Below, piece by piece: positions 1-16,776 of a DNA stretch of 64,000 nt. A program made the position numbers and the translations under genes. The number at the start of each line of letters is the position of its first letter. Positions within the stretch are counted from its first letter, which is position 1. The notes beneath the pieces were generated by a model. That model was not told the DNA's origin. It was given only the letters and a program-made list of their open reading frames with translations, and did no database searches. The DNA comes from an uncultured Lachnospiraceae bacterium (GTDB lineage Bacteria > Bacillota > Clostridia > Christensenellales > UBA1242), in NCBI GenBank assembly GCA_964432825.1, contig CAYSOX010000007.1, forward strand, positions 975 through 64,974, written 5' to 3'.

Positions 1-2
1 AA

Positions 3-563
3 GATAACCTTTCTGAAACTGAGAAGACAAAAGAAAATGCGGATAATTTTTATGCTAATTATTTTAATCGAAAGCCCACAAATGTTGATGGTGTAGAAAG
101 TGATAGGCAAACAACAAACGCGAATACAGAAATTTCTGGATGCGAATTAGATGATTGTAATTGTCACGGAGAAGACAGTGAAGGATTGCATTCTCACAAC
201 TGCCACGATAATTGTTGCAATGAGCATCACCATAATTTAGAGCATAATTGCAATAAAGGGAAAAATTCTAACGAACAAGAGGTCGATTTATTAAATCAGC
301 AACTGTCAGAGGAAGAATACCTTGAAATTAGAGCAAAAAATCTTCAAACAAAACTTTCGAAATATAAAGAATATGAATTTGATGACGAGACGGATTTTTC
401 GTGCGAACTTGACCCGTCAAAAGTGTGTGATAATTGCGGAAAGTGTTTAGAGTCTTATAATACCGATAGTGAAGGTTTTACGCAAATTAAAATAGATAAA
501 ATTGACCAGTCTAAAACCTCACTTGATAGTCTATATAAAATGTACGGGCTGGATGACGAATAA
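3..563 (+). CDS. Cys/His-rich hypothetical protein, 5' end outside window
   Basis: Frame 3 is open from base 3 to the stop at 561-563. The TTG at 186 in the track is only the first in-window start. Contains His/Cys clusters HSHNCHDNCCNEHHHNLEHNC and CDNCGKC. A terminator hairpin follows. Confidence 0.5.
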   Translation, partial: DNLSETEKTKENADNFYANYFNRKPTNVDGVESDRQTTNANTEISGCELDDCNCHGEDSEGLHSHNCHDNCCNEHHHNLEHNCNKGKNSNEQEVDLLNQQLSEEEYLEIRAKNLQTKLSKYKEYEFDDETDFSCELDPSKVCDNCGKCLESYNTDSEGFTQIKIDKIDQSKTSLDSLYKMYGLDDE

Positions 564-565
564 AT

Positions 566-613
566 GCAAAAAAAACTTTACAAAAGGGAAATCCTAATGT
601 AAAGTTTTTTTAA
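566..613. terminator. bidirectional intrinsic terminator between convergent genes
   Basis: 10-bp stem aaactttaca (573-582) / tgtaaagttt (598-607). An A-run lies upstream and a T-run downstream. Confidence 0.6.
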
Positions 614-621
614 TTTAAAAC

Positions 622-13556: not shown

Positions 13557-14177
13557 ATGGAAATAAAAAATGAAGCGGATAGAATACATCGTAAAATAAT
13601 TTGGAAAAATATTATCATTGTACTTTTGATAGGTGTTGCATTATTCTTATTTCTAAAGTTGGTGATTGAGATTGACCTACTTGATGATAAAAAGAAAATG
13701 TATCTAGAAATTGCAATTCCGTCGCTCGTTGCAGTTGCATTAATCATTGCGTGGACTGAAAAAAAGGACAAGAAAGCATGGGAAGAAGCCGATAAATATT
13801 TTCATCCAGATAAATATGGTAACGGAGAAGCAAGGCCCAAAACAAATCTTGAGCAACTTCGAGAGGCAACTCAAAATAAAATGAAATCCTCTTCCCTATC
13901 TGAATTAGGTCTTGAAAAACAAGATGATGAAAATAAATCTTCCGACAATGAATCATCCGAGCAAGCAGACGACAATGTTATAGGTTCCAAAGCCAAGGTT
14001 TCATCAGACGGAAGAGTTTCTGGAATTGGCGAATATAAATTCACGCCTCCTGGTAAAAATACCATAAATGGCAAAAAAGACATTGGTGGGTTTGGCAAGT
14101 TTAACACTGGTGTTAGGAGTGATAGCACATTAACCGGTCAAACGGGCTCTATTTTAGACAGATATAAAAATGATTAA
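13557..14177 (+). CDS. hypothetical membrane protein (2 TM, acidic/Ser-rich tail)
   Basis: RBS GTGAGGTAA. Two hydrophobic helices, then a low-complexity soluble region. Confidence 0.5.
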   Translation: MEIKNEADRIHRKIIWKNIIIVLLIGVALFLFLKLVIEIDLLDDKKKMYLEIAIPSLVAVALIIAWTEKKDKKAWEEADKYFHPDKYGNGEARPKTNLEQLREATQNKMKSSSLSELGLEKQDDENKSSDNESSEQADDNVIGSKAKVSSDGRVSGIGEYKFTPPGKNTINGKKDIGGFGKFNTGVRSDSTLTGQTGSILDRYKND

Positions 14178-14585
14178 TCAATTTGGTTGGATGTAAACGA
14201 CCGTTCTAAATGTAATGGCTAAAATAATACATTCAAATGCACATTTGGTGCAGTATAGTTATAATGAATTGATTAAAAGATTTGATATGATTGTTTTTAA
14301 TCATCATAATGTTTTGGAAATTTGCCCTATTCCACATTATTCTGATTTATATTTCTAAATTATATAAATCACCTTTCGGTTGCTGTTTGTAACAATATTT
14401 TTCTAATTAGCTTTAATCAAATCAAAATAATTAACGTTTACCATAAGCGACTTTTAAATTAGAATAATTAGACCTTTTCAAAATTATTGAAGAGGTCTTT
14501 TAATTTGTCATTAAGAGAATTATATTTAATCTGAAGATTTTAATCCAACCGCTCCAAGCAGTGGTTATTTTTGCTAAACACTACA

Positions 14586-14622
14586 ACAAAAAAATTACCT
14601 CGTGAATCTTTCACAAGGTAAT
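14586..14622 (-). terminator. intrinsic terminator downstream of pnp
   Basis: 12-bp stem attaccttgtga / tcacgaggtaat on the minus strand (one G-U pair) followed by a T7 run. Confidence 0.7.
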
Positions 14623-14694
14623 TTACATTCTTTTAAATTTATTTAATTTTGTTGAGCCGTAAAGTTTTTAATTAATTTTTATATTTCGGATTTA

Positions 14695-16776
14695 TTAACC
14701 TAACTTTTCTACTAGTTTTAGGTCAATTCGTCCCTTTTCATCAATTTTTAGCACATTTACTTTTACACGGTCACCAATTTTTACTACATCTTCAACTTTT
14801 TCAACCCTCTTTTCTGCAAGTTTTGAAATGTGAATCATTCCATCTACTCCGTGACGAATTTGCACAAATGCACCAATTGGAATTATGTTTACTACAGTGC
14901 CTTCATAAGTTTCACCAACAACAGGTTCGAAGCAAATATCTAAAATCATTGCCTTTGCCCTTTCTGCACTTTCCTCATCTGGAGTTGAAATCATAACCTT
15001 TCCTTCGTCAGTTATATCAATCTTTACACCAGTTTCGTCAATAATTTTGTTGATAGTTTTTCCACCACTTCCAATAACCTCTCTAATTTTTTCTGGGTCA
15101 ATATTGAATGCTATAATTTTTGGTGCATACTTAGACAAGTTTTCACGAGGCTTGTCAATAGTTGCAAGCATCTTCTTCATAATTTCCAATCTACCAACGC
15201 GTGCTTGTTCAAGTGCTGTGGTTAAAATGTTTTTATCAATACCCTTAATTTTAATATCCATTTGAATAGCGGTGATACCCTTTTCGGTACCGGTAACTTT
15301 AAAGTCCATATCACCATAGAAATCTTCTATACCTTGGATATCGGTTAAAACTGCAACTTGGTCATCCTGTTTGATAAGACCCATTGCGACACCGGCAACA
15401 GGTGCTTTAATTGGGACACCGGCATCCATAAGTGAAAGTGTGGATGCACAAGTGCTTGCCATTGACGAACTACCATTACTTGATAGAACCTCACTTACAA
15501 GTCTTAATGTGTATGGGAATTCATCCTCGCTTGGAATAACTGGTTCCAATGCTCTTTCGGCTAATGCTCCGTGGCCAATTTCTCTTCTGCCTGGGGCTTT
15601 AAGTTGACGAGCCTCACCAGTTGCGTATGGAGGCATATTATATTGATGCATATACCTCTTTTCTTCTTCCAAATCTAACCCATCTAATTTTTGAACCTCA
15701 CCTATTGAACCTAAAGTTAATGCATTCATAACTTGAGTTTGTCCTCTTGTAAATACTGCACTTCCGTGAACTCTTGGCAAAATTCCAACTTCACACCATA
15801 TAGGCCTAATCTCGGTTAAAGTTCTTCCGTCTGGGCGAATATGTTTATTAAAAATCATATCTCTAACGATTTCTTTTTTAAGTTTATAAAGAGTATCGTT
15901 AACTTCACGATTTTTTTCTGGATAAACTTCCTCAAAGTGCTTTACAACATCCGCTTCTACTGCATCAACAGCATTTTGGCGAGTTGCTTTGTCGGTTGTA
16001 GGGGTTAATGCCTCTTTTAATGCGTTGTATGAATACTCGCGAACCGTATTTTCAATTTCCTCCGGAACTGAATAGTATTCAATTTGTGCTTTTGGTTTGC
16101 CAATTTTTTGTACAATCTCTTCAATAAAAGCAATTTCTTGTTTAATATATTCATGTGCAAACATAATAGCATCAAGCATAGTTGCTTCACTCACTTCATT
16201 TGCACCTGCTTCTACCATCATAATAGCATCCTTTGTTCCAGATACTGTTAAATGCATATCGCTGATTTCTTGCTCTGCACTTGATGGGTTTAAAACAAAT
16301 TTTCCATCAATCATACCCACAACTACTGAGCCTGTAGGTCCTGCAAATGGAATATCTGAAATTGAAAGAGCAACAGATGAACCAATCATAGCAAGAACTT
16401 CTGTTGGAAATACATTGTCAACACTTAGTGGTGTTGCAACAACGGCTACATCATTATAAAAGCCCTTTGGGAATAATGGTCTTAGCGGTCTATCAATTAA
16501 TCTTGATATTAAAATAGCCTTGTCGCTACCCCTACCCTCTCTCTTTTTAAAGCCACCAGGAATCTTACCTACTGAATACATTTTTTCTTCAAAATCTACG
16601 CCCAAAGGAAAGAAATCCATTCCTGCGCGTGGGGCTTTGCTCATGGTAACATTTACCATTACCGAACTTTCGCCAACACTTACAATACAACTACCGTTTG
16701 CAAGTCCAGCATACTTTCCACTTTCAACAATGAGTTCTTTGCCGTCTAAGTTTAAAACGAAACGAAAATCGTCCAT
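14695..16776 (-). CDS. pnp: polyribonucleotide nucleotidyltransferase (PNPase)
   Basis: 693 aa. Two RNase-PH-like halves, a KH domain and a C-terminal S1 domain (GETYEGTVVNIIPIGAFVQI). Sits downstream of rpsO. Confidence 0.95.
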   Translation of the reverse strand: MDDFRFVLNLDGKELIVESGKYAGLANGSCIVSVGESSVMVNVTMSKAPRAGMDFFPLGVDFEEKMYSVGKIPGGFKKREGRGSDKAILISRLIDRPLRPLFPKGFYNDVAVVATPLSVDNVFPTEVLAMIGSSVALSISDIPFAGPTGSVVVGMIDGKFVLNPSSAEQEISDMHLTVSGTKDAIMMVEAGANEVSEATMLDAIMFAHEYIKQEIAFIEEIVQKIGKPKAQIEYYSVPEEIENTVREYSYNALKEALTPTTDKATRQNAVDAVEADVVKHFEEVYPEKNREVNDTLYKLKKEIVRDMIFNKHIRPDGRTLTEIRPIWCEVGILPRVHGSAVFTRGQTQVMNALTLGSIGEVQKLDGLDLEEEKRYMHQYNMPPYATGEARQLKAPGRREIGHGALAERALEPVIPSEDEFPYTLRLVSEVLSSNGSSSMASTCASTLSLMDAGVPIKAPVAGVAMGLIKQDDQVAVLTDIQGIEDFYGDMDFKVTGTEKGITAIQMDIKIKGIDKNILTTALEQARVGRLEIMKKMLATIDKPRENLSKYAPKIIAFNIDPEKIREVIGSGGKTINKIIDETGVKIDITDEGKVMISTPDEESAERAKAMILDICFEPVVGETYEGTVVNIIPIGAFVQIRHGVDGMIHISKLAEKRVEKVEDVVKIGDRVKVNVLKIDEKGRIDLKLVEKLG

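Follow-up and report, generated by a model that had tools for sequence, protein, structure and literature searches.

A dif-like site at the probable replication terminus of uncultured gut Clostridia and its occupation by an integrase-less inovirus-like prophage

We analysed a 64,000-nucleotide stretch of DNA from an uncultured Christensenellales-type bacterium (contig CAYSOX010000007.1 of assembly GCA_964432825.1; hereafter the window; GC content about 33%), which carries a gene for a XerS-like tyrosine recombinase, xer, and an inovirus-like prophage with no recognizable integrase. The 32-bp sequence at the xer-proximal end of the prophage (6019-6050) is, with a probability that we put at roughly 85%, the dif site of a single-recombinase Xer system located at the replication terminus, and the phage attachment site (attP) mimics this dif. 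The word single refers to the 64-kb window, and all conclusions are comparative and computational, the organism being known from metagenome assemblies. An earlier reading of the window (the original prediction) had proposed a terminus at this locus, occupied by a prophage that integrated in the way of integrative mobile elements that exploit Xer (IMEXs), in a Gram-positive-type host. Support for such integration now comes from the intact dif and the pseudo-dif at the prophage junctions, the dif-type target, and the recurrence of the arrangement in five other prophages and in free phages. Features are listed in Table 1.

The dif site is the only one of its kind in the window. Its conservation emerged when related loci were searched for the left block of the att repeat that flanks the prophage: with xer placed downstream, the loci share a 32-bp palindrome, ACTATKCGYAAAA-NACARN-TTTTRCGMATAGT, with 13-bp inverted arms and an asymmetric 6-bp spacer. 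At a threshold of at least 20 of the 26 arm positions, 58 of the 80 species loci have the palindrome, each of them once, at 14-5199 bp (median about 0.5 kb) upstream of xer. The two arms covary between species (...TTCGC.../...GCGAA... versus ...TGCGT.../...ACGCA...), as expected of a site bound by a homodimer. The distance from xer, 14-1300 bp in relatives, is 4.3 kb in the window because a species-specific gene encoding a 1112-residue sigma-factor-like protein has been inserted between the two. The sister species L007 and L040 lack this gene and have 0.74-0.89 kb of non-coding DNA between xer and dif; the insertion of the gene into the terminus region is therefore specific to the lineage, and it may be the cargo of an older mobile element. 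The expectation of a dif-type target near xer proved correct in that a dif-type core lies exactly at the point of integration; the core is, however, neither the streptococcal difSL nor the canonical Firmicutes dif, whose 28-bp consensus is not matched anywhere in the window even when 3 mismatches are allowed.

The prophage inserted into this core is precisely bounded. In two empty-site contigs with the same recombinase (L002 and L003), window position 6093 is joined to 12299 through a single copy of an approximately 65-bp repeat, which is imperfectly duplicated in the window (6029-6093 and 12299-12364). The 32-bp core at the xer-proximal junction, attL, is the same as in the empty allele L002 and forms the left end of the repeat. 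The distal junction, attR, is a pseudo-dif that agrees with dif at 7 of 13 positions in the phage-side arm, at all 6 in the spacer and at all 13 in the host arm. A second lysogen (contig SRR30535872_39517; loci L001 and L092) harbors a 90-97% identical variant of the element at the same site, with the same attR junction (L092). The run shared by the two junctions confines the crossover to 6032-6052 / 12302-12322. At attL of the second lysogen, a stretch of about 26 bp past the good arm is of phage type; at attR the corresponding stretch is of host type, as in the empty allele. This places the exchange inside TCTGTA+TTTGGCGAATACT. The reconstructed attP adjoins the putative replication gene, rep, immediately downstream of it. 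Insertion inside the 32-bp core of a host dif, junctions made of dif and a modified dif, and no detectable recombinase of its own are the marks of an IMEX.

Two other sequence features lie to the right of the prophage. A pseudo-site at 14019-14035, within a gene for a 206-residue protein, was considered as a relic attR and rejected because the same coding sequence is kept in L040. Imperfect direct repeats, spaced 61 and 79 bp from start to start, occupy the non-coding DNA just right of attR (12370-12760) and are also found in the empty-site strain.

The location of the site at the terminus is supported by strand composition and by a polar motif. Among the 35 species loci that extend 4 kb or more to either side of the site, GC skew is higher to the left than to the right in every one and changes from positive to negative in 30 (means of +0.092 on the left and -0.073 on the right), and long open reading frames (ORFs) converge toward the site. 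An unbiased k-mer scan of orientation identified GGTAGGG, with a bias of 82:1 toward the site; of the 75 copies mapped locus by locus, 74 are directed at it (39 on the plus strand to the left, 35 on the minus strand to the right, and one in the wrong orientation). The window itself has eight copies, all directed toward dif, one on the plus strand (5399) and seven on the minus strand (6667, 12977, 16530, 23920, 46578, 54926 and 58489). The polarity of candidate FtsK-orienting motifs, which the original prediction had named as a check, thus flips at the site both in the window and across species. In its longer form, GGGTAGGG, the motif fits the consensus of the FtsK-orienting polar sequences (KOPS) of E. 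coli, GGGNAGGG. Together with the lack of a canonical Firmicutes dif in the window, the flips of skew and motif support the view that the site marks the replication terminus, as had been proposed. The FtsK encoded in the window, which has a gamma domain, is likely to be the activator and orienting motor for Xer. One copy of GGGTAGGG lies within the prophage (6667, minus strand); it is directed at the intact dif of attL and so has the orientation that permits translocation by FtsK.

The presumed partner of the site is the xer product. Among curated models (NCBIfam), XerS (NF003462) ranks first, followed by XerC, XerA and XerD. The match to XerS scores 202.4 bits and spans model positions 3-354 of 360; the cut-off of 267 is not reached, and the protein scores below every curated Xer cut-off. 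The likening to XerS in the original prediction thus holds in the sense of XerS-like, not of XerS itself. Solved structures most similar to the protein are those of XerD and XerA, with weak similarity to XerH; the naming is based on these PDB matches and on scores of curated hidden Markov models rather than on a tree against XerC, XerD, XerS and XerH. Catalytic-type motifs are all retained: GIRVSE (residue 196), TRKGG (220), HKLRST (292), LGHKD (316) and KKHY (325). Homologues with 52-88% identity are present, one per genome, in at least 257 species genomes, all of them metagenome-assembled genomes of uncultured Clostridia or of Christensenellales type, and the wider family has more than 8000 relatives, named by NCBI merely 'tyrosine-type recombinase/integrase'. 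A tblastn search of the 64-kb window with the Xer protein gave no second tyrosine recombinase. The gene is kept in strains without the prophage and is syntenic in sister species, where the order is pnp, the 206-residue gene, the site, xer and a gene for a 125-residue protein, with lexA also syntenic; it is therefore a host gene and not the integrase of the element. A grouping with integrases of phages or integrative and conjugative elements (ICEs), which would have counted against the original prediction, is not indicated: XerS is the best curated model of this syntenic host gene.

An isolated half-site close to the xer start codon has equivalents in both sister species, and in at least 25 species a single arm is found 30-85 bp upstream of xer, in either orientation and in some cases directly before a TATAAT box. 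These arms suggest an operator through which xer would regulate its own expression, a role made more likely by their recurrence at this distance in so many species. A relic junction of an older IMEX was also considered for the half-site and was rejected, given its equivalents in at least 25 species and in both orientations.

As a rival explanation, the palindrome and the recombinase might constitute a conserved landing-pad module, or the palindrome an operator of xer, with dimer resolution left to a canonical XerCD/dif elsewhere in the genome. The isolated half-sites near the xer promoter do show that the arm serves another, possibly regulatory, purpose, and a recombinase that falls below every curated Xer cut-off, in a family with so general a name, is compatible with such a module. 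The skew and the strongly polar KOPS-like motif, however, both flip at the site in dozens of species, as is expected of dif but not of just any att site. The best full-length match of the protein is to XerS, and the 64 kb contain no canonical Firmicutes dif, no second recombinase and no xerC at the trmFO-hslV position. The absence of the codV/xerC gene that B. subtilis carries there had been noted before and is confirmed: hslV and trmFO overlap, so that there is no room for one between them. We regard this explanation as improbable.

The dif reading also gains from other elements inserted at the same type of site. Two more occupied loci emerged when every locus was scanned for a further site with the spacer and one arm of its own dif. 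In L021, dif and pseudo-dif lie 5.4 kb apart and flank a gokushovirus-like Microviridae prophage (Phage_F 1.2e-178, and a Rep). In L079 the two sites are 9.8 kb apart, and the element between them is a different inovirus-like one, with a weak Zot match, a REP_ORF2-G2P protein and a repressor of the cI/LexA type. Three lysogens related to the window phage (L106, L109 and L110) were found on long contigs with Zot-like homologues; their prophages lie a few kilobases upstream of a xer homologue of 346-351 residues and are likewise flanked by dif and pseudo-dif. All five further prophages thus have both sites, with the same or nearly the same spacer, and with the window they represent at least three phage lineages at this dif type, two groups of inoviruses and one microvirus. 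The intact dif is xer-proximal in five of the six prophages. In the window and in four of the five other lysogens the prophage is therefore distal to the intact dif and leaves the xer promoter undisturbed. A rule that the intact dif is always xer-proximal had to be rejected, since in L106 it is distal, which indicates that either arm of attP may be the degenerate one; the symmetry of the dif arms leads to the same expectation.

Similarity between phage and host extends 20-45 bp past the good arm in the window (6051-6093/12321-12364) and in L021, L079, L106 and L110. The shared stretch of L021 includes ATAGGGTAG, and in the genus of the window TATTCCCT is conserved about 30 bp from dif. The extended similarity may represent an accessory site or the footprint of imprecise or homologous exchange. 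Defense genes also cluster at the dif locus of other species: in L106 (517-5154) the DNA directly distal to dif holds a type II Cas9-Cas1-Cas2 locus, and in L109 (16249-17121) and L110 (14666-15610) a CD-NTase (CBASS-like) gene is found in the interval from dif to xer.

Free phages provide the attP side of the comparison. Seven of 11 free circular gut inovirus genomes carry a perfect dif arm (13 of 13 positions), a spacer and a degenerate second arm, and in a shuffle control only 34 of 2000 sets had even one such match. The seven matches amount to about three independent cases, because five of the genomes (L098-L102; bajarodino viruses 31, 73, 1, 17 and 16) share one 22-mer, ACTATGCGCAAAAGTCTTCTTG, in the 3' part of rep. 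This 22-mer comprises the perfect arm and the spacer and is invariant while its flanks have diverged, which suggests a constraint on the DNA itself inside the coding region. Integration at this position would truncate rep. In another free genome (L096) the site has 21-nt identity with the dif of L020/L079-type hosts, and in L111 a site of arm plus spacer is intergenic, after rep. None of the 11 genomes has a recombinase annotation. Searches of IMG/VR for relatives gave only chance matches with the DNA pattern and none with the Zot-like protein.

The genes of the element fit a filamentous phage: a Zot/pI-type ATPase, the gene order, the small genome encoded almost entirely on one strand, and small hydrophobic, coat-like proteins, all as in Inoviridae. 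The Zot-like protein is 40-56% identical to Zot-annotated proteins of 12 inovirus genomes, complete and circular, from the faecal viromes of pigs and rodents. Its AlphaFold model, of moderate confidence (predicted local distance difference test score, pLDDT, of 61), has the N-terminal domain of Zot (2r2a, 5.8e-5) as its best PDB match and also matches Inoviridae Zot in BFVD. The candidate major coat protein is 100% conserved in the second lysogen. The secreted, membrane-anchored product of 8542-9564 may be a receptor-binding protein like pIII, as its gene follows the Zot-like gene in the same way as in related inoviruses, and 6112-6993 is tentatively assigned as the replication initiator. A single prophage ORF is on the opposite strand (7410-7997, plus). 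Its 195-residue product, 78% conserved in the second lysogen, has several hydrophobic segments and a Lys/Thr-rich linker, and the ORF sits where related genomes hold small repressor genes. No integrase, resolvase or transposase domain was detected in any prophage ORF with Pfam, NCBIfam or PHROGs, several of the ORFs having no family.

These observations suggest the following model of integration. The attP of the phage would act as a dif mimic in which the 6-bp spacer TCTGTA is exact, one arm is good and the other is degenerate. The host Xer would synapse the attP of the double-stranded replicative form with dif and exchange strands at the spacer. The xer-proximal junction would thereby regain an intact dif; as dif is regenerated at one junction, dimer resolution would be preserved and further elements could integrate. 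The distal junction would be left as a crippled pseudo-dif from which excision is expected to be slower, by analogy with LME-1, the gonococcal genetic island (GGI) and TLC-phi, and the degenerate arm may in this way stabilize lysogeny. In this model FtsK would activate Xer.

The phage could instead integrate with its own machinery, a rolling-circle Rep or an unrecognised recombinase, the palindrome being merely a preferred target in which host Xer plays no part. Most prophage ORFs lack a family assignment and could conceal such an enzyme, and the dif-like arm inside the rep gene of five free relatives could hint at a function linked to Rep. The replication proteins of the elements are, however, unrelated (that of the window has no Pfam match, those of L079 and the bajarodino viruses are of the REP_ORF2-G2P family, and that of L021 is microviral), and the elements have in common just the target and the dif-mimic design. 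The crossover is moreover a conservative exchange within the spacer and arm of a core of the tyrosine-recombinase type, whereas integration by an HUH Rep would not regenerate a perfect inverted-repeat core together with a pseudo-core. This makes phage-encoded integration very unlikely. Least credible is the idea that 622-1683 is a phage or ICE integrase and the repeats its own att sites, to which its Phage_integrase fold and its position a few kilobases from the prophage lend some color: the empty-site alleles, the persistence of xer in prophage-free strains, the host-side gene between it and the prophage, its synteny with pnp, the 206-residue gene and lexA, and its single occurrence in at least 257 species leave this a negligible chance.

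Several results weigh against integration by host Xer at a terminal dif. After removal of the prophage, the sign change in the skew of the window falls not exactly at the integration site but about 2.4 kb to its right (+0.106 for 1-6018, +0.193 for 12321-14694 and -0.158 for 14695-64000). The original prediction had placed the prophage exactly at the polarity switch; a switch of the terminus type is present, with its compositional part at this distance from the integration site. The left replichore occupies about 6 kb of the window, and convergent polarity on that side rests mainly on the sister-species loci. The stretch of about 26 bp that is informative in the second lysogen is phage-type at both junctions of the window lysogen, attR not being host-type, and an extra event therefore has to be assumed, which we infer to be an earlier integration cycle or a homologous exchange in the extended repeat. 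The prophage proteins match no curated family, PHROGs and Pfam remaining empty even at E=10, and the Rep assignment depends on a single match of 31% identity to a circular inovirus, Dulem virus 72. Look-ups with the exact proteins returned the integrated form or nothing, so that a free attP junction of exactly this phage was not recovered. Finally, a close circular relative (L113/L114), whose Zot-like protein is about 83% identical to that of the window, has no dif-like site. This relative (in L113 a 5.06-kb circle, from a contig with a 127-bp terminal overlap) also lacks the 162-residue gene that adjoins attP, and is probably a non-integrating, episomal lineage.

Table 1. Features of the window, with positions counted from its first nucleotide
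Feature	Position	Strand	Basis or remark
xer, XerS-like tyrosine recombinase, 353 aa, chromosomal	622-1683	-	Pfam Phage_integrase 1.8e-34; SAM-like N-terminal domain
Isolated Xer half-site, ACTTTTCGCAAAA	1731-1743	+	about 50 bp upstream of xer start codon; 12/13 arm-consensus positions
Sigma-factor-like gene, 1112 aa	1889-5227	+	PHROG 351 'RNA polymerase sigma factor' 6.6e-16; weak sigma-70 region 4 match
KOPS-like motif GGGGTAGGG, rightward to dif	5397-5405	+	sole plus-strand GGTAGGG of the window
Probable dif (attL), ACAATTCGTAAAA-TCTGTA-TTTGGCGAATACT	6019-6050	.	13+6+13 core at xer-proximal prophage junction; matches empty allele
Inovirus-like prophage body	6051-12288	-	integrated element 6,270 bp; empty site in L002, L003
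Phage-borne copy of about 43 bp resembling host sequence distal to dif	6051-6093	.	middle part phage-type in attL of both lysogens
Putative replication initiator, 293 aa	6112-6993	-	31% identity (2e-24) to Dulem virus 72 replication protein; no Pfam match
Secreted membrane-anchored protein, 340 aa, Gly/Tyr-rich linker	8542-9564	-	signal-peptide-like N-terminus, hydrophobic C-terminus
Zot/pI-like morphogenesis ATPase, 276 aa	10004-10834	-	Walker A GGVKCGKT
Candidate major coat protein, 80 aa, hydrophobic helix, basic C-terminus	10934-11176	-	sequence features only
attR pseudo-dif, CTAAATCGCCAAG-TCTGTA-TTTGGCGAATACT	12289-12320	.	degenerate phage arm, dif-identical spacer, host distal arm
KOPS-like motif GGGGTAGGG, leftward to dif	12977-12985	-	all seven minus copies right of dif
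pnp	14695-16776	-	curated models
relA/spoT	17252-19396	-	curated models
recJ	19409-21670	-	curated models
recA	23994-25046	-	curated models
pgsA	25196-25897	-	curated models
FtsK DNA translocase	27290-30061	-	Pfam FtsK_SpoIIIE 5e-59, FtsK_gamma 2e-22, FtsK_alpha 5e-21; NCBIfam FtsK
hslU, hslV, trmFO, topA, dprA	hslV 53826-54362; trmFO 54359-55690	-	curated models

The gene layout around the locus agrees largely with the original prediction. All convincing genes between 14.7 and 64 kb are on the minus strand, as claimed, with the sole exception of an ORF of 936 residues (43877-46687, plus), and the identities of the host genes in Table 1 are confirmed by curated models. To the left of the prophage, ORFs 186-563 and 1889-5227 are on the plus strand, as is 13557-14177 beyond it, and xer is on the minus strand; the plus-strand host-like genes reported earlier (3-563, 1943-5227 and 13557-14177) are borne out with these boundaries. 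The prophage does lie in about 2 kb of DNA that is otherwise free of ORFs, 4.3 kb from xer. The 936-residue ORF is the only large plus-strand gene in the 50-kb minus-strand block, has no NCBIfam match at 1e-10, and coincides with a local anomaly of AT and GC skew at 44-47 kb; it may have been acquired horizontally.

Beyond the window, we consider it reasonably likely that Christensenellales-type gut Clostridia have an undescribed mode of dimer resolution by one Xer (a XerS-related recombinase, a symmetric 32-bp ACTATKCGYAAAA-N6-TTTTRCGMATAGT site and GGGTAGGG as the polar motif), whose site is the shared landing site of at least three integrase-less lineages of phages with single-stranded DNA. 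In open-access text we found neither a single-Xer/dif system of Clostridia or Christensenellales nor an IMEX of a Gram-positive-type host; the IMEXs reported to date are from Proteobacteria (XerCD) and Legionella (XerL), and inoviruses have been predicted in many phyla. If correct, our interpretation would extend Xer hijacking to a Gram-positive-type gut lineage with one recombinase. For a large and abundant group of uncultured gut bacteria it names an explicit dif sequence together with candidates for the KOPS motif and the Xer, and matching of attP to dif could link orphan inoviruses and microviruses of gut viromes to their hosts. The symmetric arms raise the questions of which monomer cleaves first and how FtsK imposes directionality, and natural phages with either arm degenerate offer material for comparison.

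One of the systems closest to that of the window is XerS/difSL of streptococci and lactococci (Le Bourgeois 2007, PMC1914069; Nolivos 2010, PMC2965235), which has in common with it a single recombinase of about 355 residues, a linked upstream dif at the terminus, and an FtsK with a gamma domain. The inner arm of the window site, TTCGCAAAA, is similar to TTTCCGAAAA, the half-site of difSL as given in PMC5357621, a likeness limited to this arm. difSL is 31 bp long, with asymmetric half-sites (TTTCCGAAAA / TTTTCTTGAAA) and a spacer described as 11 bp (PMC5357621), whereas the site in the window is 32 bp long, of a kind whose 13-bp arms are often perfectly symmetric, and has a 6-bp spacer, which sets it apart from difSL. 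The polar motif is G-rich (GGGTAGGG), unlike the A-rich heptamer of L. lactis, and the hosts are Clostridia, not Streptococcaceae. Tight linkage of difSL to xerS has been proposed as a possible protection against such insertions (Le Bourgeois, PMC1914069); here the linkage is looser and variable, from 14 bp to 5 kb, and natural IMEXs are present. The canonical XerCD/dif system of Firmicutes (CodV/RipX) differs as well, as the window has neither a 28-bp dif nor two paralogous recombinases.

A parallel for the mode of integration is LME-1, which enters the dif of the one-recombinase XerL system of Legionella by means of a partial dif mimic (Nicholson 2022, PMC9765430). There too one junction is an intact dif and the other a modified one, and the att of the element reveals the host dif. 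The modified dif of LME-1 was shown experimentally to reduce excision in Legionella (PMC9765430). The recombinase lineage and the site sequence are different, Legionella is Gram-negative, and LME-1 is not an inovirus; the Legionella system is also experimentally proven, whereas we infer that of the window. Microviridae prophages at dif, comparable to that of L021 with its flanking dif and pseudo-dif, are on record as well (Krupovic and Forterre 2011, PMC3091885; Kirchberger and Ochman 2020, PMC7062461), and the published cases use the XerCD dif of Bacteroidetes and Enterobacteria in place of the single-Xer palindrome of Clostridia.

Integrase-less filamentous phages that exploit host Xer at dif are known from XerCD hosts, where the IMEXs include CTX-phi, VGJ-phi, TLC-phi, XacF1 and the GGI of Neisseria (PMC4246890, PMC5357621, PMC5666396). 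As in TLC-phi and the GGI, the attP of the window phage keeps one arm and the spacer while the second arm is degenerate, and reduced excision from the weakened junction has been argued for both of those elements (PMC5357621). Regeneration of dif, which permits serial integration, is another common trait. The present host belongs to the Clostridia, and nothing in the window phage points to a folded, single-stranded attP of the CTX type. With one recombinase in place of two, there is no distinction between a XerC arm and a XerD arm, and either arm of attP can therefore be the degenerate one, as L106 and the other lysogens illustrate.

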